Shown in pieces: positions 3,001-52,816 of a stretch of 64,000 bases of DNA. Position numbers and translations under genes: made by a program. Position 1 is the stretch's first letter, and each line of letters starts with the position of its first letter. The stretch is from Dipteris shenzhenensis (Eukaryota), in the NCBI GenBank assembly GCA_047967505.1, contig CM106538.1; one strand, 5' to 3'. The notes under the pieces are model-generated. The model saw nothing but the letters and a program-made list of their open reading frames with translations, had not been told where the DNA came from and searched no databases.

Positions 3001-4860
3001 ATGATTATGACATTGTTCATACACTTGGTAATCAACATGTTGTTGTAGATTATTTAAGCTGAGTGATGAATGGTGAGGCACCTTTGGGAATTCAGGATGA
3101 TTTACCTAATGCACATTTGTGTTCTGTCAACCTACATGGTGAAATATTTTGTAGACTCGAAATTCCAAAGTTCCATGTCTATAGGTCCATGCTCTGAGAG
3201 ATATCTCAAGCATGCAAGAGGTATGGCACCTTGGAAAAATCAAAAATGTTGTATGCAACGATAATCATGAGTGCATAATAATAATTTTGTGTGGAGGGTG
3301 TAATTGTCTATGCCGAGGTCGGGAGTGTTCTCTTCCTATCAATTCAATCATTTCAACCGACATGCCCACTGCCTCCGATGACATGTCCTTATAAGGGATT
3401 AGTTTAGTGGCAGTTCGCATGTTTGGCATTACACTCTTTTAGCTGTTTCCAGTTCCAGATTACTAAATCTTTTCCAAGCACTTTCGCTTGTTGTTCAATG
3501 TGTCAGAGGATGTCCTTAGCACACAATGATCTCGCTTAAGGTGCAGAGCTTTCATCATCGTGTCTTGAGCTTGATTTACTTTCAACCGCAACCAGTAGAG
3601 AGATGGGTCACAAACCTGCAAGTGCACCGGCTCATTATCCAAAGGGAGATAAAGTCAGCCATAGTGGAAGCTCATGACCTTTCGGAGGATTCGGCCATTG
3701 AGTCAAATCCGTCGAGGAAAAAGTAGTAAATCAATGACAGTCCATCGTTATTCCAAGAATCAAAGGTATCTCTTGATTTGGGATTACATAAGAAATGGTT
3801 AAAAAAGATTAAGTTATATGATTTCACATGTTTGCCATTGTGGAAGGATAACCCAGATGTTCTCAGTCAATTTCAAGTATTACAATGAATGGGGGGAGAA
3901 ATTGCTATGGAAGTGAAAATCACACTGGAATTGGTTGCGAGTGTGTTTTGTTTTCCCTATTATTTAGAAGAGGTTCAAACTGATATATGTGCAAATGAGA
4001 TCATGATGACCAAGTTTGGAAATCTAGTTTCGTCCAAAATTTGTTATATGATTAGTAAAGTACAGGATCCAATCAGAAAGTAGCAGTTGGGTTGGTTTGT
4101 AGAGAGGGTTGTGTTACTGGTTTGGAATGATTATATGGCCAAAGAAAATTATGCTTACTTGTTAGCTACAAAAAAGGGGAAAAGGCATCGTGGGCAATGC
4201 TAGTGTACACAAAGATATGTACACAAAGATAATGTAGGAGATCTCAAGGAAACAATCCCGAACTCTGAATCAGTTTTCTAGAATTGTACCATATATTACA
4301 GCTTTATTTGGTCATGTGGTCTAGAAGAGGGAAAGCAATCCATCTCACAAGGAAAAAGGGAAAAAGGTGTTTGAAGATTCGGATGATATAGTTAAGGATA
4401 CCATTGATCACTTGGTCAAAGCCAAGTACACATATCAACAATCAGTTGAGATGGCTACAGGAAAGTCATTATTTATAGCTTTATGGAATGCACCGATCAT
4501 AGGTAAGGAGAAGAAGGTTCTTTAAGAACCATCATTAAATCTAGATTGAAGATTTCATTGAAGAAGGGGGCAATAGGTGACTTAAAGGCTTTATTGAGAG
4601 AAAATTTCCGTCCCTTTTCCTTGAGAGAATTCCGTTCATTGCATTTCTTCTTGAGAGACTTCTGTTATGTGAAAGAGAGTCCATTCATGAGGTTCCTTCG
4701 ATTGTTTCTTTGAAAGATTCAAAGAGAGTGAAAGTTCTTCATTTTCGTTGAAAGAACTAAATTCTATTCATTCTACAAAGAGATGTTGCCTTCTTTGTTT
4801 TTTGAAGAGAAATTTTAGTTTGGAGCTTGTGAGAGGGAGAAGTTTCTAATCCTATCCTAC
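1..4860 (+). mobile_element. Decayed Ty3/gypsy (Athila/Tat-like) LTR retrotransposon A, internally deleted
   Basis: Protease LLDGGSGVNIL (~1375); RT start (DIFAWHYTDMKGVDP, DPFPL, FSGYSQI; 2130-2630) fused by deletion to RNase H (FADAS, YYASRRL, KKFRHYL; 2646-3000). No integrase seen. Purine tract gaagaagggggcaa at ~4560 precedes a probable 3' LTR remnant. Many stops and frameshifts. Confidence 0.85.
3500..4520 (+). pseudogene. Decayed accessory (ORF2/env-like) region of gypsy element A
   Basis: Broken frames with VKITLELVASVFCFP and WAMLVYTKI, lying between pol and the purine tract; motif pattern parallels the 14300-14640 ORF of element B. Confidence 0.5.
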
Positions 4861-6388
4861 ACCGAGAGAGAGAGAGAGCGCCTATTAGACAACAAACTAC
4901 GAGCTCCTCAGCCAAGCTCTGCAACTACGAGCTCCTCAGCCAAACTCACCCACAACAGCAGCAATGAGGGACGATCAAACGGCACCTAGCAAGCAGTAAC
5001 TACTACAGCCAACTCGACCCAAATAAGCAAGCGCAAGGCAGCCGCCGCAACACAGAAGCAAGCAGCGCTCCACACGTAGCAACAAGCCCATGACTTAGCT
5101 ACGCTCCTATCATCCTGTAGCGATCTCACAACAACGGCACAGCGCCAGCCAACGGATGTCCTTAAGGCTCTTAAGAGCAACGCCCGTGAGAGCCTAATGT
5201 ACAAGACGGTTCACAGGCAAAAATCTCGCCATGCAAGCCAGCAGCAGCTAGTCCAAGCAGCCGCCCATAGACTTTGATCTAATTCTTGACGTGCCAAGAG
5301 CTCGATCTTCTTGACCCAACCATACTCGCAAGTAATGTAGAGATGAGCAGCAGCCAAGTGATCTACAATCATCCCGACTCCAACAAATAGAACGACAGAT
5401 GACTGCGGCTTGCAACAGGCAACACTACGGAGGACAGCTTCTGCAGGAGCTTTAAGTTTTTGTGCCAAGCTCTCTATCACGCTTAATCGACAACTTCAAG
5501 GTTCGAGCAAACCTCCAACGAGCCAGTAAGGGCCCTTCCACAATGCGCTGGACTTCCAAAGGTCCAAAGCTCCTCCAGCGCCTCGGCTGGACTCTACCAA
5601 CCACCGCCATAGCCAACTCCATAGCCAGCGCTACACAACGAGCCACCTCCATAGCCAGCGCTCTACCATCATTCACCGAGCCGCTTCTCCAGCGCCTGCC
5701 TCTCCAGGAGACTACCCAACCAGCTCCCAGCCAACGCCAGACGAGCGCTCAGCCTACAGACAGCCCACGCAAGCTCTTGCTACAGTAGCTCCACAACCTC
5801 TAGTAGCCCTGCGCTCCATCAACGAGAAGCACACAGACAGCGGCTCGTCAGTCTCGCGGAAGAGGCAGTCGGGGAAGACGACAGAATCTGAAAGGTTCCA
5901 TCAGAATCTTCAGAAGATTTCTATCTCCGACACGTGGCGGATAAGGGGCTACCCTTATCCCCTGCTTGACCACATTTGGTTAGAAAATTGACACGTGACA
6001 GCCACATCATCTCATATGACACCTCAGCAACTGCCATGTCAGCAGCCCCTATCATCACCTTATCCACAGTGCCATGTCATCTGCCATGGTGGCAGCCATG
6101 TTAGTAGGCTATGTCATCTTGCCAACTCATCAGCCACGTCATCATTGACACATCAGCTGCCATGTCAGCATTGCCACATCATCATAACGATTCATGGAGG
6201 CTCTCCCTCCGCAGGAGTTCAAGGGTTTAAAAGGGGATTTCAGGGTTTGAAAGGGGGACAAGGTTGAGAGAGCTAACTGGGAGTTCTAGGGTTCAAAGAG
6301 GGTTGCAGGGTTTAGGAGAAGTCCAAGGTTGAGGAGTGGAGAGCTAGTCTCCTTCGCAGATTCAAGGGGTAAGGGTTGAGGAGGAGGG

Positions 6389-21509: not shown

Positions 21510-21543
<34 letters not shown>
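21510..21543. repeat. (AG)n microsatellite upstream of CLASP
   Basis: Directly visible. Confidence 0.95.
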
Positions 21544-21546
<3 letters not shown>

Positions 21547-22529: not shown

Positions 22530-22862
22530 ATGGAGGAAGCTTTAGAACTTCTTCTCTCCAAGGATACCAAGGAACGGATGGCTGGCGTCGAGAGGCTGCA
22601 GACTCTTCTTGAGCAGAGTAGACGCAGCCTCACCGCGACGGAAGTCGGAAGTCTCGTCGATGCGTCGCTGGGACTTCTGAAAGACAACAACTTTAGAGTC
22701 TGTCAGGGCGCTCTGCAGGCTCTTGCTTCCGCAGCAGCTCTGGCCAGCGAGCACTTGAAGCTGCACTTCAACATACTGCTGCCTGCGATCGTGGAGCGGT
22801 TGGGGGATAGCAAGCAACCAGTGCGAGATGCCGGTCGACGCCTTCTTCTGGCTCTGATGGAG
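22530..22862 (+). CDS. CLASP: CLASP coding exon 1
   Basis: MEEALELLLSKDTKERMAGVERL...LKDNNFRVCQGALQ...ERLGDSKQPVRDAGRRLLLALME, then gtagtt; start context gcaATGG. Confidence 0.97.
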
Positions 22863-24128: not shown

Positions 24129-24274
24129 GCTCCATAACACATCCCCCAAAGATGACACATGTAGTCATCTTCCACTAATCTACTTTAACGCGATTGTGTC
24201 TGCTCCATAACACATCCCCCAAAGATGACACATGTAGTCATCTCCCACTAATCTACTTTAACGCGATTGTGTCT
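24129..24274. repeat. 73-bp tandem duplication, 1 mismatch
   Basis: Units 24129-24201 and 24202-24274. Confidence 0.95.
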
Positions 24275-25700: not shown

Positions 25701-25914
25701 CGTTAGCACTTAGCCCTGGTATGGCCTTGTAGGCTAGTCTTAGGACTTAGTCAACCCTTAGGTTGACTTCGTTGGTCAACCATATGGTTGACTTCACAGC
25801 CATATAGGCCACCCCTTTGTACTTTCTCATTATCCATTTGGAAGTACTTCGTGTTCCTTCAGCTTGTTGTTTGCTCCCTTGCACTCCACTCCCATTCCAT
25901 TGCTTCCCGCACCC
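25701..25914 (+). repeat. 5' LTR of intron-1 copia (initial TG mutated to CG, terminal aaca lost)
   Basis: Aligns with 32351-32566 at roughly 90% identity by eye. Confidence 0.93.
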
Positions 25915-28602
25915 GGTATTAGAGCATGTTCTTTTGCTCCTACTTGCCTCCCCTTGTGCTCTCCCATTGCTCCTACCTGCCAATTTACTCCAGCTCAGTC
26001 TGGTGCCTAATTTCATCGCCAGAAACCTTTTTTTGGAGCAGAAAAAACATTCCAACGACTGTTTTTTGACTTTTGGAGGTCTGATTTCGACGTTTTTTAA
26101 AATTTCTGAGCTGCCCGCATACAATTGACCGTGTCCCACTGACCCTGTCCCGCACTAGTTCAGCCGTTTTTTTTTTTGGGGGTACGTACAGTTGTACGGA
26201 TGTTTGTATGGACACGCGCGCAACGCTGCCAAGAATCTGTATGACTTGTCAAAAGTTGATTTCGAGCATTTCAGCCTCTTTTTTTGAGGTTTTTTGCTCA
26301 GATTGGGAATCTTTTCAGTCATTCGGGCTATCCTCCAGCTGCTCCAACCTACTCTAGCACCATTTGGCTAGGATTTGCTCCCTCTTGACTCAGATCTACC
26401 TAGTACTGTTTTTTGAGGGTTTTTTCTGAGATCTGGACTCTTTTCAGTCATTCGGTCCTTCCTCCAGCTGCTCCAACCTACTCTAGCACCATTTGGTTGG
26501 GATTGCTTCCTCTTGACTCAGATCTACCTAGTACAGTTGGATTTGAAGCATTTCACCCTCTTTTATGTCACATTTGCACACATTGCAGTGACATTGAGGT
26601 GATTTTTCTCTAGAAATTGGGGCTTTTGTGTCACATTTGCGGAAATTTGTAGTGACATTTGCTCCTTTTGGTCACATTTTGGGGCTTTTGCAGTACTTGC
26701 CCTATTTTTGACTCCATTTCAACTCCAACTTGGGGGATTTTGGATCTATTTCTGGTACATTGCGGAATAGTTTCAGATTTGCAAGTTATTTCGTCACATT
26801 TGCTAAAGACATTTGGTTGCTTTGATATGAAATTGGGGGTTTTCAGTGACATTCACAAGAAATTGCAGCAAATTTTGGTCACATTTGCAAAATTACAGCT
26901 TATTTTGGGGCTTTTACCAATTTGGCATAATTGCCCTCTCCAAACTTGGGGCTTTTGCCAAATTTGCTGATTTCTGCAGCATTCTTTACTTGACACAGCC
27001 AAATTTGGGTTCTATTTGCATTTGCCCTTCAATTTGAGCCATTTGTCCTTTGACATTTGTGGCATTCAGCCACTATTTGGGACAGATTCAGCTCGGATTT
27101 GCATTGAACAGATTTGCAGACCTTTGCCCTTTGATTTGGACTGGTCATTTGAAAGACAGCTATTAGCAGGGGGGTCCTGTGATTGCACTTATATTTTCTT
27201 GCGGGTCAATTTTTGGGGACAGCTTGTGCATTTTGCTCAGTGTTTGAGAAGCCATCTTTGTAGACATTTGCTGTCATTTTCATTTGCAGAGCACTTTTGT
27301 TTTCATTTGCAATGGCAAACCATGAATCTTTTGGGATGCTTGTTGCTGAGGACAAGCTTGGTGGCACCAACTTGGTGCGCCACCTGTTGGTTTCCAGAAA
27401 CTTTTGGGGAATTGTATTTGGATCGGAGACTAGACTTGTCTCTTCATCACAAGCCCCTTCTGCCACTTCTGCCACTTCTGCCACTTCTGCCACTACTCCC
27501 TCCGTGCCTGCCGTCGACTCTCCAACACAAGAACAGATTTGTTGGGATCAGTGAGATGGACATGCACATGCAGTGATTGTCATGAATTGCAAGAGAGTTA
27601 TTATACCTCACATTCGGTCTTGCAAAACAGCCAAGGCTGCATGAGACACTTTGGCCAGTCTTTATCATATATGCAATGAGGCCAAAGTTGCTTATTTGCG
27701 CAGACAGCTTGACAATGTTAAGATGAATGAAGGGGGCAGCATGGACGCCTATTTGACACAGGTCAAAGACTTCAAAGAGCAGCTCATCAATGTTGATGAG
27801 ATTGTACCAGACTCATAGGTTGTCTACCACACTTGATGGGCTTCTTGACTCATATCAGGGATTTGCTACAACACTTTGACTAGTGGCCATGGGTAACACC
27901 AACCACTATTCTTTTGATCAACTTGTTTCCCTACTCCTATAGGAGGAGTAGAGTCGCCAAAACATTGCTGCGTTCACTCATGGAGATCAAGCCTTAGCTA
28001 CAGATCACAGGGGCAAAGGAAAAAGGGGAAAAAATGACAGCAAGCCCAAACCTACATCTAGTACCTCATCCTCTTCCTCTCCTGCCAATGGGAAGAAGAA
28101 GAAACGCTGCAATTATTGGAGGAAACCAGGTCATGACATCTTTGAGTGCTGGAAGCGTATTGCTTGCGAGAAGAAGCATGGACAGCCAGGACAGCAAGGT
28201 CTTGTTGTCACAAATACTCCAGCTGCTAATGTCACAAATATAGAGGCATCCAATCTTGCTCATGATGAGTGGGCATTTATTGTGGGGTGTCATTATAATC
28301 CTACTTTGCATGATTCAGCTTTTGCGGCCTCAAATTCTGTCTCAGACTGGTACTTTGATAGTGGTGCTTCCAAGCACATCAGTTCTTGCAAAAATCTCAC
28401 ACTCATTGAGTGGTGTTCCAAAGGGGGGCACAATCACTTGTGCAAATAATGCAGCATTTCCCGTGAAAGGGATTGGTCAAGTGCTTGTCACTGCAGTGTC
28501 AGGTGATACCATTCCACTTGTGGAAGTTTTATATGTTCCAAGTATAAAAAAGAATCTGATTTCTATCCCAGCAATCTCCACACATGGCTTCAGAGTTCTT
28601 TT

Positions 28603-29345
28603 GATTTGGCAAAATATGGAGTCATTTCTTCCCAATTCCATAGATTTTCCCGCCTTTGTACAACTAAGGAGTAAAATAATGATAAAAGTTCGCACATTCT
28701 TAGATATGAAGTCTTTTATCTATGGTGTTTCGGCCTTAGGTTTGTTTAGAATGATTGAACATAAGCTGAAAACAAAAAGCGGGGAGCTGAATAGCCATTT
28801 TTCTTTTAGTTTCAAAAGAGAGTTTGTTTGAGTATACTTGTGCTTTCTAAGTTAGAAACGTATTTTTGCCTCTTTGTAGAAACGATACATAAGTGTAAAG
28901 GGCCATTTAGCTTTTCATGTTTTAAATAAGAGAGAGAGAGAGTTTCTAGTTTTTTGGAAGTTTTTGTTTCTTGACTTGTTTGTTTATTTTTACTGAGTCA
29001 CCTGCTTCGTTTCTTCTTTTTTTCTTGTTTTCATTCTCTTTTGTTTATTTGACGTATTTTAGTAAGCACTGGGTTTGCCCAAGAGACTCCACGGGTCTTT
29101 AGAAACCCAATATAGCTGCTTATGCTTGGGCACTGATGACGACATAAGTGTTGTTTTGCTTGCTAAGTATGTCTTCCTTTTGTTTTTCATAAAAGTTTTT
29201 GTTTACCTCTTTTTTCTTCTCTTTCATTTTCTCTTTTATTTTCTTTGTAGATTTTTGATCTTTAGAACAACAAAAATTCTAAATTTGTATGATTGGACTT
29301 ATTCTAGTCTTACAAAGGTATACACAGCGATAACCATCAAAAAGA
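28603..29345 (+). mobile_element. Putative Penelope-like element (PLE) 3'-end/pLTR fragment nested in the copia element
   Basis: Interrupts copia pol just after the protease. Encodes LAKYGVISSQFHRFSRLCTTKE and, after a frame change, KVRTFLDMKSFIYGVSALGLFRMIE, resembling the PLE RT C-terminal region. Followed by a hammerhead-like fold and a GT-AG intron (29167-29250). Confidence 0.65.
29069..29153 (+). ncRNA. Degenerate type III hammerhead-ribozyme-like motif
   Basis: GUU triplet (29073-29075), then stem I tgcccaag (29076-29083) pairing with cttgggca (29125-29132), immediately followed by CUGAUGA (29133-29139) and a stem II hairpin. The GAAA expected after stem II is absent. Confidence 0.45.
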
Positions 29346-32300
29346 ATGTGGTTAATGATAATCAGTACGACAACTATTTTGTACTTACTGAAACACGTGC
29401 AAGAGGGCTATATCATCTTGACATGTATGCACTGCTAGCAGGCTGCTATAGAAGCTAATGCTGTGGCTGAATCTGTAATTTGTCATACAAATCTATGGCA
29501 TGAGGGATTGGGACATCTCAACTTCAACAGCTTGGTGAAAATGCATTCACATGACGTGGTTGTAGATGTTCCACCCATGCATGCACTTAAAAAACATGTA
29601 TGCGAGGGTTGCTTGTTGGGCAAAATGCATAGGTTTCCATTTCCCAAGGACGGGACCCTTGGTGGATCTAGGTAGTTGCATCTCGTACATAGTGATGTGT
29701 GCGGACCGATGCGGACAGCATCACTTGGGGGGTACTATTACTTTGTTTTTTATAGACGACTTCACCAGGTTCACTTGGATATATCCCATGAAGCTAAAGT
29801 CAGATGTCTTCTCTTGCTTCAAACATCAGATCACCTTGGTAGAGAATGAGAGTGGGGAGAAACTCTTGACCTTCCACACCGATAGGGGGGTAAGTACTTG
29901 TCCCGAGCATTTTCTAAACTGTTAGTAGCCCGGGGTATCATTCATCAGTGCATAGTGGCCTACACTCCGCAACAAAATGGACTTGCCGAGTGCAAGAATA
30001 GAACCGAAATGGAAAATGGGCAGGTGCATGCTTAATGGAAAGTCTTTGCCCAATAAATTCTGGTTGGATGCGATTATGTGTGCCAACTATGTGCTCAATC
30101 GAGCACCCACGCGGGCATTGAAGACCATGACTCCCTATGAAGCATGGACAGGTCGTAAGCCTGTCATTTCTCACATGCAGATGTTTGGGTCTCTTGCGTA
30201 TGTGCATGTACCCTCTCAATTTAGGCATAAGCTTGATGATAAGGCTGTCAAATTCATCTTCATTGGCTACAGCTCACAAAGCAAAGGTTACAAGTTGTTT
30301 CAGCCTAGCATAGGCAAGTTGATTGTCAGTAGGGATGTGGTATTAGATGAGCATGCCCCTTTACCTTGGCTGGACTGTAAAACACAACCTTCGGTGGAAG
30401 CCTTTGATGTGCTTGATTCTATTCCGCCTTTCACATATATAGAAGACACAGTGCAGAGCTCCATGTGGCTCCAAACCTTCTAGCAGCTCCAATCCTCCTC
30501 TCGTTGCTCCTGCTTAGCCTGATTTTTCACCGCCAGATGGCCATGCTATCGAGCAAGCAGTTCAAGAGGATAGGGCTGTCATGAGATAGTAAAAATCAGT
30601 CCCTCATTGGCTTTTGGATACCTTAGGGACAGCAAGCAAGATGCGCCCTTGGTTGCGCGCACTAGAGGGGAACAAAAACAAATGCATGGCAATTTACTTG
30701 AGCTGAATGTTGCTTTGATTGCCACTGCCTGGAATGAGGAGCCTTTATGTCACAAAGATGCATTTTAATGGATGCAGGTCATGAGAGCTGAACTTGATTC
30801 CATTCAAGCAAATGACACATGGGACTTGTGTGATTTGCCTGCAGGCAAGTGTGCCATTGGCACAAAGTGGGTTTACAAATTGAAGCGCAAAGCTGATGGT
30901 AGTGTTGATCGCTACAAAGCTCGCCTTGTTGCAAAAGGTTATGTCCAGCAGCATGGTATTGACTCTGAAGAGACATTTGCTCCCACTTCACGCATCACGA
31001 CCATTCGATGTGTCATCGCTCTTGCATTTGACAGGCATTGGGAGGTCCATCAGTTGGTGATCAAGACCGCCTTCCTTCATGGGGATTTAGTGGAAGAGGT
31101 CTATGTCACTCAGCCTCCAGGATTTGAACTTCTAGGGTCTGAAACTAAGGTATGCCGCTTAAAAGGTTCTTTATGGTTTGCGGGTGTGGTATGCCAAGAT
31201 ACATTCTTTTTTCCTGTGCCTTGGGTTTCAAAACTGCCCTATGGAGGCTACTCTTTATGTCCGGAAGAGTGAATTATAATTTTTGATTTGATTCTATATG
31301 TGGATGACATGCTCATCATTGTTCCAGACTTGCAGAAAATTGCAGATTTCAAGGCAGCTTTGCAAAAATCTTTTGCCATGACAGATATGGGATGGTTGCA
31401 CTATTCCTTGGGCATCAGTTTGCATATGTTGAGTCAGTCCAAGTACATTGGACAGCTCTTAGAATGCTTCCAGTTTGAAGATTGCAAGCCAGTTTCTACA
31501 CCATTGGAGCCTGGCTTTCGTTTCTCCTCTGTGGATGGGAGTGCACCATTTGATGCCACCCTTTATCAGCAGGCTGTGGGCTGAATTATTTATTTAAAAT
31601 ATGTCATACTCGGCCTGATCTTCAATATGCCGTCTCTTAGTTGAGCAGGTACATGCACATGTCTAGTACATAGCATTGGCAAGCAGTGAAGCGGGTCTTC
31701 CATTACTTGAAGGCCACACAAAATTTGGGACTGTTCTATGGTGCTGAGTCTCCAGTGGTCTTGCATGCTTTGATGGATAGTGATTGGGCAGGTTCTTATG
31801 ACACGAGTGTCCCACAGTGGCAACTATTTCATGCTTGGATTTTCATGCATTTCATGGTTCAGCAAGAAGCAACCTACAATTGCTACTTCCAGTTGTGAAG
31901 CTGAATATAGGGCAATCTTCACAGCTACAGTAGAGAGTGTCTGGCTCCGTAAGCCATCCAACTTCAGCCATCCAACTTCTACTACCATCCACACTGACAG
32001 CTAGAGTGCTTTGGCTATTGCGAGAAACCCAGTGTTTCATGCATGCACAGAGCACATTGAGGTTCATTATCATTATGTTTGAGAGCGATTGTCAGCTGGA
32101 GACATACAGTTGTCCTATGTTCCCACGGAGGACAACTTAGTAGGTCTCTTCACGAAGGCTTTACCATGGCCCCAGTTTGAGGCTTTTCGACATGCCTTAC
32201 ACTTGGCACCATTTGTTGCATGATTTTGATCTCCTTGTACTGTCATAGGTTGCTATATCCTTCTTGGACAAATATGTGCAACCATAATATAGTTTCAAGG

Positions 32301-32350
32301 TATACCTGAGATGTATCAAGGATACTTCAGCCATACCATGGAGCGGGGTT

Positions 32351-32566
32351 TGTTAGCACTTAGCCCTGGTATGGCCTTGTAGCTAGTCTTAGGACTCAGT
32401 CAACCCTTAGGTTGACTTTATTTGTCAACCATATGGTTGACTTTGGGGCCATATAGGCCATCCTTCTGTACTTTCTCATTATCCATTTGCAAGTACTTTG
32501 TGTTCCTTCAGCTTGTTGTTTGCTCCCTTGCAACCATTCCCATTCCATTGCTTCCCGCACCCAACA
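32351..32566 (+). repeat. 3' LTR of intron-1 copia
   Basis: TGTT...AACA; preceded by ggagcgggg and followed by TSD GATAG. Confidence 0.95.
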
Positions 32567-33992: not shown

Positions 33993-34032
<40 letters not shown>

Positions 34033-34888
34033 TGTATTAATGTCCGCATGAGACCCTTTAGGGTCTATGGGACTGGTGATCACTATTAACAAATAGTGGT
34101 CTTTTTACATCTAGTGAAAGGAAACACTACTAATTTGCTATGTAGTGAGTACTTGTCGAGTTAGCCTGTGTGCTAGTCCAAGTACCTTGTTGTGGTGTTC
34201 CAAGACTTTTTAAGTAGCTTCCTAGCTCTTTGGCTGGCTGCTCCCAACAGATTTTTCAGGTTGCTTAAGCTGTCCTCATAGCTTTCCCTAATGTGTGCAT
34301 AAGATCGACACCTTAGGAGTACATGCTGCTCATTTTCTAGCTCTCCGGTGGGGCTGGTTTTGTAGATTCTATCCTCTCCTGGGACCTTGGGTCTTGCCTA
34401 CCTGTCCTTCTCCACCTCTAGATCATGTGAGTGGGTTCTGGTTTTGCAGATTAGATGCCTTTTAAACATTGATATGTCTTCCCCGAGGTGTTTTTGCATT
34501 CCATGGCTGTCCATCGGATTAATTTCCTGTTTGGAAAACTACATTTTTGCCCCCGGTTCTTGCCATAACGTTTGTAGCATTTTCTGCATCACTAACTCCC
34601 TGATTTCGCATGTATCGTCTGGTATATAAGCAGCCGTTATGTCCCATAATCCCATCCATTTCATCCCCTCTATGTCCAGTGATTTCCGTAGCTTCCATTG
34701 CCTTGTGTGGTATGCTACTGGCATCCATCTTCTGAACCTTGTCGAGGTAGGCCATGAATTGGCATAATGCTCTCCCTTCGAGAGATATCATACCTGTCTC
34801 AGCTAGTATGGGGTAAGATGTCTAAATCTTAACCCCTAGCTCCTATGTAAAGTTTCTATTCTTTTTGAGTAGGTCCTAGAGAGCCTGG

Positions 34889-52773: not shown

Positions 52774-52776
<3 letters not shown>

Positions 52777-52816
<40 letters not shown>
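52777..52816. repeat. (CT)n microsatellite
   Basis: Directly visible. Confidence 0.95.

Follow-up and report, generated by a model that had tools for sequence, protein, structure and literature searches.

A truncated Penelope-like element of probable Chlamys type inside a copia retrotransposon of Dipteris shenzhenensis

Two groups of Penelope-like elements (PLEs), Naiad and Chlamys, carry a GIY-YIG endonuclease (EN) at the N-terminus of their protein, and a CxC motif, a GxKF motif, a DK motif followed by a variable residue and a long spacer between RT3(A) and RT4(B) are diagnostic for them, according to Craig, Yushenova, Rodriguez and Arkhipova 2021 (PMC8557442), who defined the group. The same paper reports Chlamys elements in green algae, in Chara, in spike mosses and in a slime mould, while mosses are represented by BlastP matches only. 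The land-plant record of the N-terminal-EN group given there consists of spike-moss families that lack the EN and target ribosomal DNA (rDNA), together with the moss matches. The words 'fern' and 'ferns' are absent from the text of that paper (PMC8557442). Here we describe a PLE insert at positions 28603-29322 (+ strand) of a 64,000-nucleotide stretch of Dipteris shenzhenensis DNA from contig CM106538.1, referred to as a whole as the window. The insert is very probably a dead, 5′-truncated copy of a PLE of the Naiad/Chlamys N-terminal-EN group, of the Chlamys type.

The insertion itself is ordinary; the family is hardly described in land plants. Judging by title and abstract, none of the papers listed from 2021 on Chlamys and GIY-YIG PLEs deals with land plants. 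A review of plant genomes has nothing on such elements, one further paper only cites Naiad/Chlamys, and a RepeatMasker table for a liverwort has a 'Penelope' row. No paper linking Penelope retrotransposons to Ceratopteris came up. An earlier note on this DNA, made from the letters of the sequence, had called the family possibly undescribed in this lineage. This is plausible, as our literature searches, which did not extend to Repbase, Dfam or the supplements of curated families, found no description of Chlamys-type PLEs in ferns. The same note had read the insert as the 3′ end of a PLE whose open reading frame (ORF) ends after the reverse transcriptase (RT), and this is borne out by the homology of the protein P0001, by the architecture of its relatives and by a predicted fold.

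The insert and its open reading frame

The boundaries of the insert were mapped with contigs from four public sequencing runs placed on positions 28000-30000; further runs with small shares of the stretch (X5-X20) were left aside. A total of 42 contigs (4 from X1, 21 from X2 and 17 from X3) left the window sequence just past 29322, and the flanks of the X1-X3 contigs beyond this point were mutually unlike, with a consensus agreement of 0.44-0.56. On the left side, matches began at at least 11 points, among those listed (28740, 28743, 28751, 29043, 29086, 29087, 29249, 29261, 29262, 29282 and 29289), with 279 further loose ends, and the match of one X1 contig began at 28602. Such a pattern, in which the 3′ end is constant while truncation makes the 5′ end vary, marks a dispersed multi-copy retroelement. 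When the block 28603-29322 was taken out, the copia reading around it continued in frame (...GFRVLF/TAITIKKN..., with the slash at the site of the block). Because contig similarity ended at 29322 and copia was in frame once the block was removed, we set the length of the insert at 720 bp. The earlier note had described an insert of ~740 bp splitting the copia pol; a foreign block does lie between copia domains, although it ends 23 nt short of the end coordinate given there, 29345.

The copy ends in ...GGTATA without a poly(A) tail, and no (CA)n or (C)n target was evident at the insertion. A blastn search of the insert against the 64-kb window recovered no second copy, and this is the only PLE-like piece in it.

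The window copy retains the last ~75 codons of the ORF, which form the helical thumb after the RT. Both peptides quoted in the earlier note are present in the sequence: LAKYGVISSQFHRFSRLCTTKE is read in frame 1 at 28606-28671, and ...TFLDMKSFIYGVSALGLFRMIE... is read in frame 2 inside 28673-28828. The frame-2 peptide had one protein match, P0001 (185 aa; 74% identity, E 7.8e-11), in which the two peptides lie in a single frame, 21 residues apart. These 21 residues are found at the same site in P0009 and are missing from the window copy, and in one X1 contig 62 additional nucleotides sit precisely between 28672 and 28673. The shift from frame 1 to frame 2 follows from the size of this deletion, 62 nt. 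The two peptides are one ORF, split in the window copy by the deletion.

In P0009 (85 aa), the DNA of the first peptide is translated in the other frame before the reading switches to the correct one, which shows that other copies of the family have independent frameshifts.

The ORF then runs to its own stop codon (Table 1), and a similar end, 30-50 aa after the GY region, was found in all 20 of the wider aligned relatives. As had been claimed for the sequence after 28831, no endonuclease follows: there was no Pfam match downstream of the stop, and across the insert Pfam recovered only copia domains in ten frames, with none in any frame between Pol_BBD and GAG-pre-integrase. The T-rich untranslated region (UTR) that had been described after the stop is also there.

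The thumb motif AKYGVISSQFHRFSRLC of the first ORF piece is conserved in alignments A1 and A2 and maps to helix 496-513 of a structural model of P0002, a relative of P0001. More generally, a thumb motif of the type K-x-G-x3-SQ-x2-R-x2-R-x-C is conserved across 20 aligned relatives with both types of endonuclease; the earlier note had named this motif as a mark of PLEs, and it is present in the family and in its wider relatives alike. Both ORF pieces fall within the thumb of four helices at the C-terminus of the P0002 model, and the deletion takes out most of the second helix.

Relatives, domain order and fold

P0001 matched the proteins P0002 (583 aa), P0003, P0004 and P0005, with E values of 1e-59 to 1e-62 and 60-62% identity. 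Among named relatives the closest is P0004, a hypothetical protein of the fern Ceratopteris richardii (NCBI name). A HMMER scan of P0001 against 1.84 billion representatives returned 1080 matches at E<=1e-3, and in the long ones (760-1190 aa) the aligned part lay at the extreme C-terminus. P0002 matched 244 proteins at E<=1e-3 and had no relative among viral contigs. The peptide search that the earlier note had asked for therefore led, through P0001, to PLE-type relatives and not to a non-PLE protein. One protein of 3597 aa, P0080, contains 11 separate stretches that match the thumb region of P0001; its gene model possibly spans several PLE copies in tandem.

The domain order was read from the long relatives. 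In a first set of ten, Pfam placed a GIY-YIG domain at residues 46-201 in eight, all above the curated cut-off, and RVT_1 at 540-861 in six, with no match in two. A second set of ten gave a weak N-terminal GIY-YIG in two, a weak RVT_1 in one and nothing in seven. P0204 has the same order of GIY-YIG followed by RT. PF26215.1, which appears in precomputed tables for P0001, P0158, P0160 and P0204, was not reproduced by a Pfam scan at E<=10 and was not used.

The diagnostic motifs were found in the relatives as well. P0002 contains GTKF and DKC, and P0156, from a sister plant subfamily, contains RGTKFR and DKC; upstream of RGTKFR, both P0156 and the ORF of sister locus L003 have the CxC motif as SGCACF. 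The consensus of a 60-sequence alignment shows KG...R, DKA and CxC. The spacing between RT3(A) and RT4(B) was 98-99 aa in the plant families, 91-100 aa in Chlamys-type and 80-90 aa in Naiad-type proteins, in a comparison confined to these groups. The domain order of the relatives, together with CxC, GxKF, DK and an apparently long spacer, points to the permuted Naiad/Chlamys architecture.

The sister subfamily was followed in metagenome contigs, where P0156, which is 50% identical to P0002, had at least 225 related stretches; 80 loci from among them were used. In these loci a GIY-YIG ORF lies upstream of the RT. Pfam scored the GIY-YIG domain at 23.2 bits in L037 (cut-off 22.6) and at 21.9 bits in L050, and gave no match in L060, a copy without the start of the domain. 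Neither the L037 nor the L050 endonuclease has a C-x2-C between GIY and YIG; in the alignment both go with P0029, P0178 and P0151, not with eight relatives that have C-x2-C. The C-x2-C is a proxy of our choice, and scoring was limited to the portion of the motif that falls between GIY and YIG. The N-terminal GIY-YIG domain for which the earlier note had suggested a test is found in eight of ten long relatives, weakly in two of ten more, and in L037.

Sister elements can also form pseudo-long terminal repeats (pLTRs). In two of nine loci the ~300-550 bp region after the ORF was repeated upstream of the endonuclease (551-1077 versus 4712-5262 in L037, 81%; 3773-4068 versus 7567-7861 in L045, 85%). 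In these loci the upstream repeat is separated from the GIY-YIG ORF by ~800 nt. The 3′ terminus is sharply defined, with 30 of 38 pattern matches representing the element 3′ end and all of these stopping at ...TCTTATGAAAGATAT, followed by unrelated sequence. The window copy has a terminus that aligns with it (Table 1), and its 3′ UTR of 491 nt compares with ~440 nt in L003. Beyond this, the insert had only short T-rich blastn matches in the 80 sister loci.

Past the terminal ...GATAT or ...GGTATA, some copies run into TA repeats (L032 at ~4926-4990; X2 loose ends behind 29322). These may represent a variable (TA)n tail or a preference for TA-rich targets.

We then placed the families in an unrooted tree of 41 proteins (IQ-TREE, short search), with labels set by motif. 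The fern-like group (support 99) and the sister group (100) together formed a clade with a support of 100 among the 30 rows without an endonuclease C-x2-C, and all 11 rows with C-x2-C fell on the opposite side of a branch with a support of 100. The earlier note had suggested an RT phylogeny as a check; in this tree the fern-like and sister groups lie on the side without C-x2-C.

Finally, an AlphaFold2 model of P0002, built with the 60-sequence alignment, reached a predicted local distance difference test (pLDDT) score of 93.7. In a Foldseek search of the PDB with this model, ranks 1-14 were all telomerase RTs (TERTs; E 2e-10 to 3e-6), and group II intron RTs ranked behind them at 1.2e-5. The TERT-like fold was measured on this relative, 60-62% identical to P0001, and not on the 75-codon tail in the window. 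A telomerase-like match is expected for the RT of a PLE.

The 3′ region and alternative explanations

In the 3′ region, the earlier note had seen a hammerhead-like motif, a retained U-rich intron, a truncated open stretch and a pLTR. The hammerhead did not hold up. CTGATGA at 29133-29139 is one of 15 in the window, where 15.4 are expected, and no GAAA lies within 4-30 nt after it. Rfam searches of 28000-30000 and of 28800-29340 at E<=10 found no ribozyme, with only chance matches to long non-coding RNAs, small nucleolar RNAs and microRNAs, and 84 kb of sequence from seven sister loci likewise contained no ribozyme that reached the gathering score. A GT..AG stretch matching the proposed intron does exist (Table 1), but the contigs of the four runs contained no joint between 29158 and 29251, and several of them read straight through. 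The supposed open stretch is a frame at 29066-29458 that simply continues into copia. A pLTR was not found in the window, where the element is present as one truncated copy without a tandem partner.

It is unlikely, then, that the 3′ region works as a pLTR module in which a hammerhead-like ribozyme is joined by an intron that was retained and can be spliced. The T-rich GT..AG stretch at 29159-29250 would fit such a module, and the predicted fold of 29060-29165 is better than that of 198 of 200 shuffles, with two folding as well. Introns linked to pLTRs are known from Penelope and from Chlamys-3_cRei (PMC8557442), and the sister subfamily forms its pLTRs from the 3′ region. However, the ribozyme searches at the insert and in the sister loci, the chance frequency of CTGATGA without its GAAA partner and the read-through contigs all speak against it, and hammerheads are absent from most Chlamys and Naiad elements (PMC8557442), which makes their absence here compatible with that group. 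The predicted fold by itself gives a weak hint of a structured element in the 3′ UTR.

Several observations weigh against assigning the insert to an EN-bearing Chlamys-type PLE. The window copy is an ORF tail only, in which no RT core, endonuclease, CxC or pLTR is visible. The proteins of its own subfamily, P0001-P0005, start no earlier than GxKF, so the endonuclease and CxC were seen only outside this subfamily, the endonuclease in the wider relatives and in the sister subfamily. Pfam gave nothing meaningful on P0001-P0005, P0156, P0158 and P0160, and its silence on P0001-P0005 and P0156 counts here. A HMMER profile of alignment A1 against PDB sequences returned one chance match only. The labels Chlamys and Naiad in the tree rest on the endonuclease motif and not on named reference sequences. 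At the insert itself, no target-site duplication (TSD) or terminal repeats were visible, and the missing TSD is not in favour of this assignment. No empty site was recovered among the contigs, and joints that skip 1070-1314 nt around the insert were not clean excisions. Summed contig depth rises from 5′ to 3′ toward 29322, which is suggestive only, as contig depth cannot rank the parts of the stretch.

Some of these points would also fit the tail of an EN-less PLE, either one like the PLE-X elements of Selaginella and Chara or one from a branch that lost its endonuclease secondarily. No protein of the subfamily extends upstream of GxKF, and EN-minus families, which are the type found in spike mosses, arise within Chlamys (PMC8557442). 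We nevertheless consider this quite improbable. The sister subfamily, which forms a clade with a support of 100 with the window's subfamily, has a GIY-YIG ORF upstream of its RT. Further, PLE-X elements have canonical hammerheads and a 28S rDNA target, according to that paper, while the copies here have no hammerhead, are dispersed and lie in flanks that are unlike each other. We thus retain the assignment to a PLE of the N-terminal-EN group, of Chlamys type. Because P0001-P0005 reach no further than GxKF, the N-terminal endonuclease of the window's own subfamily is one that we infer from its relatives.

That the insert is instead the 3′ end of a long interspersed nuclear element (LINE) or a short interspersed nuclear element, or captured host or organellar DNA, is highly improbable: LINEs too are typically 5′-truncated with a fixed 3′ end, parts of the stretch occurred in several small runs, which had first suggested high-copy organellar DNA, and Pfam is silent on the insert, but relatives of the ORF-tail homologues combine GIY-YIG with a TERT-like RT, a poly(A) tail is absent and the mutually unlike flanks of other copies do not suit organellar sequence.

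Two further candidates were tried and rejected. An organellar origin (nuclear plastid or mitochondrial DNA) or the tail of a matK-like maturase was ruled out by the unlike flanks of the other copies and by an ORF that is a PLE thumb. A solo long terminal repeat (LTR) or a miniature inverted-repeat transposable element was ruled out by the absence of terminal repeats and of a TSD.

Host locus and comparison with known systems

The element that received the insert is a degenerate Ty1/copia with many frameshifts in its internal region. Its LTR pair (25702-25914 and 32352-32562) is 92% identical over 213 bp, and Pfam placed Pol_BBD (Pol beta-barrel) at 28415-28591 and GAG-pre-integrase at 29460-29627, on either side of the insert. 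The host copia is an old element, and the nested PLE tail was inserted into it later. On the + strand, an open frame at about 22530-22750 starts MEEALELL...KERMAGVERL..., which we take to be the N-terminus, or first exon, of a CLASP-like gene; it was found through a short motif. The location of copia is consistent with intron 1 of such a gene, which fits the earlier placement of a copia element in CLASP intron 1.

Elsewhere around the locus, tandem duplications lie at 24129-24274 (73-bp units, 98.6% identity) and, just within the copia 5′ region, at 26280-26538 (~129-bp units, 89%). Microsatellites of the (GA)n/(TC)n type occur at 21510-21544, 33995-34036 and 52774-52816, and the PLE 3′ UTR has a short (GA)n of its own.

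Table 1. Positions of the features described, in window coordinates
Feature	Position	Strand	Evidence
Host Ty1/copia, degenerate, LTRs 92% alike	25702..32562	+	LTR pair, Pol_BBD and gag_pre-integrs domains, many frameshifts
Whole 5′-truncated PLE copy, 720 bp	28603..29322	+	Contigs of four runs match this block only
ORF piece 1, frame 1; first helix of the thumb, bearing the AKYGVISSQFHRFSRLC motif	28603..28671	+	tblastn of P0001 residues 97-118
Site of 62-nt internal deletion, ORF passes from frame 1 to frame 2	28672..28673	+	X1 contig, P0001, P0009
ORF piece 2, frame 2; final helices of the thumb plus C-terminus	28673..28828	+	Aligns to P0001 residues 140-184
Native stop TGA of the single ORF	28829..28831	+	P0001, P0002, P0003 and P0005 stop here to within a few residues
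3′ UTR, 491 nt, 46% T, (GA)n at ~28929-28941	28832..29322	+	Piecewise cover by contigs up to 29322; no Pfam match
Predicted multi-branched RNA fold	29060..29165	+	Minimum free energy -36.1 kcal/mol, z -2.87
GT..AG T-rich stretch, 92 nt, 61% T; putative intron of the earlier note	29159..29250	+	
Element 3′ terminus (...TCTTACAAAGGTATA)	29288..29322	+	Last ~35 nt align with sister terminus ...TCTTATGAAAGATAT

The integration may be pictured as follows, by analogy with the mechanism established for PLEs. After copia had entered the CLASP-like intron, a full-length master copy elsewhere would have been transcribed, and its GIY-YIG endonuclease would have nicked the target in copia pol. The telomerase-like RT would then have primed on the nick from the defined 3′ end of the RNA, by target-primed reverse transcription. 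An early stop of the RT would have left only the 3′ tail, 5′-truncated and dead on arrival, and the loss of 62 nt would have occurred in this copy later than the insertion.

For the locus itself the meaning is modest. The fragment is without a function of its own and is one more break in a decayed copia; as a nested dead insertion it orders events, with copia first and the PLE tail later. The family is of wider interest. A dispersed multi-copy family, a sister that bears the endonuclease and a fern relative together suggest that the lineage stayed active well inside land plants. We tentatively propose that an uncurated, EN-bearing Chlamys lineage could be native to and abundant in land plants, inherited from streptophyte algae and not recently transferred; the at least 225 stretches related to the sister subfamily would then lie in plant-derived metagenome contigs. 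Its 3′ terminus would be conserved, and its RT would recognize this terminus and a structured segment of the 3′ UTR. If this is true, the range of N-terminal-EN PLEs, so far algae and the EN-minus families of spike mosses, reaches into euphyllophytes. Repeat libraries may file copies of this kind as unknown or as LINEs.

Compared with known systems, the element is most like Chlamys. In the window family, as in Chlamys, a single ORF terminates behind the RT thumb. An N-terminal GIY-YIG lacking C-x2-C or CCHH-type cysteines is found in its relatives and in the sister subfamily, and the relatives have CxC, GxKF, a variable residue after DK (here DKC) and an apparently long RT3-RT4 spacer at the IFD position. 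The lack of a canonical hammerhead, frequent 5′ truncation and genome-wide dispersal are further likenesses, as are the pLTRs of the sister subfamily. It differs from described Chlamys elements in that its closest named relative is from a fern and its insertion shows neither a (CA)n nor a (C)n target, and its own endonuclease is deduced from relatives.

The invertebrate Naiad elements have the same permuted order (N-terminal endonuclease, CxC, IFD, C-terminal RT) and share ~27-30% identity with P0002 across more than 90% of the latter. Naiad-type proteins differ, however, in having C-x2-C between GIY and YIG, DKA and a spacer of 80-90 aa, and they lie on the opposite side of the branch with a support of 100. 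The PLE-X elements of Selaginella and Chara are likewise PLEs of the green lineage with CxC and an ORF ending after the RT. As described, however, they have no GIY-YIG, their hammerheads are canonical and those of spike mosses insert into 28S rDNA, whereas the family here is dispersed, has no hammerhead and has a sister with GIY-YIG.

The canonical PLEs with a C-terminal EN (Penelope/Poseidon, including the conifer Dryad subclade; Neptune; Nematis) share the TERT-like RT, the thumb motif, 5′ truncation and the habit of forming pLTRs. They have GIY-YIG after the thumb as well as hammerheads, whereas the ORF here stops at 28829-28831 with no Pfam match after it. LINEs differ in having an apurinic or restriction-like endonuclease, a LINE-type RT and often a tail of poly(A) or simple repeats, where the relatives of our element have GIY-YIG and a TERT-like RT, and the insert has no poly(A). 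Telomerase, finally, provides the best structural match of the P0002 model at 11-14% identity; it differs from the family described here, which is a multi-copy mobile element for which no telomerase N-terminal domains were shown.

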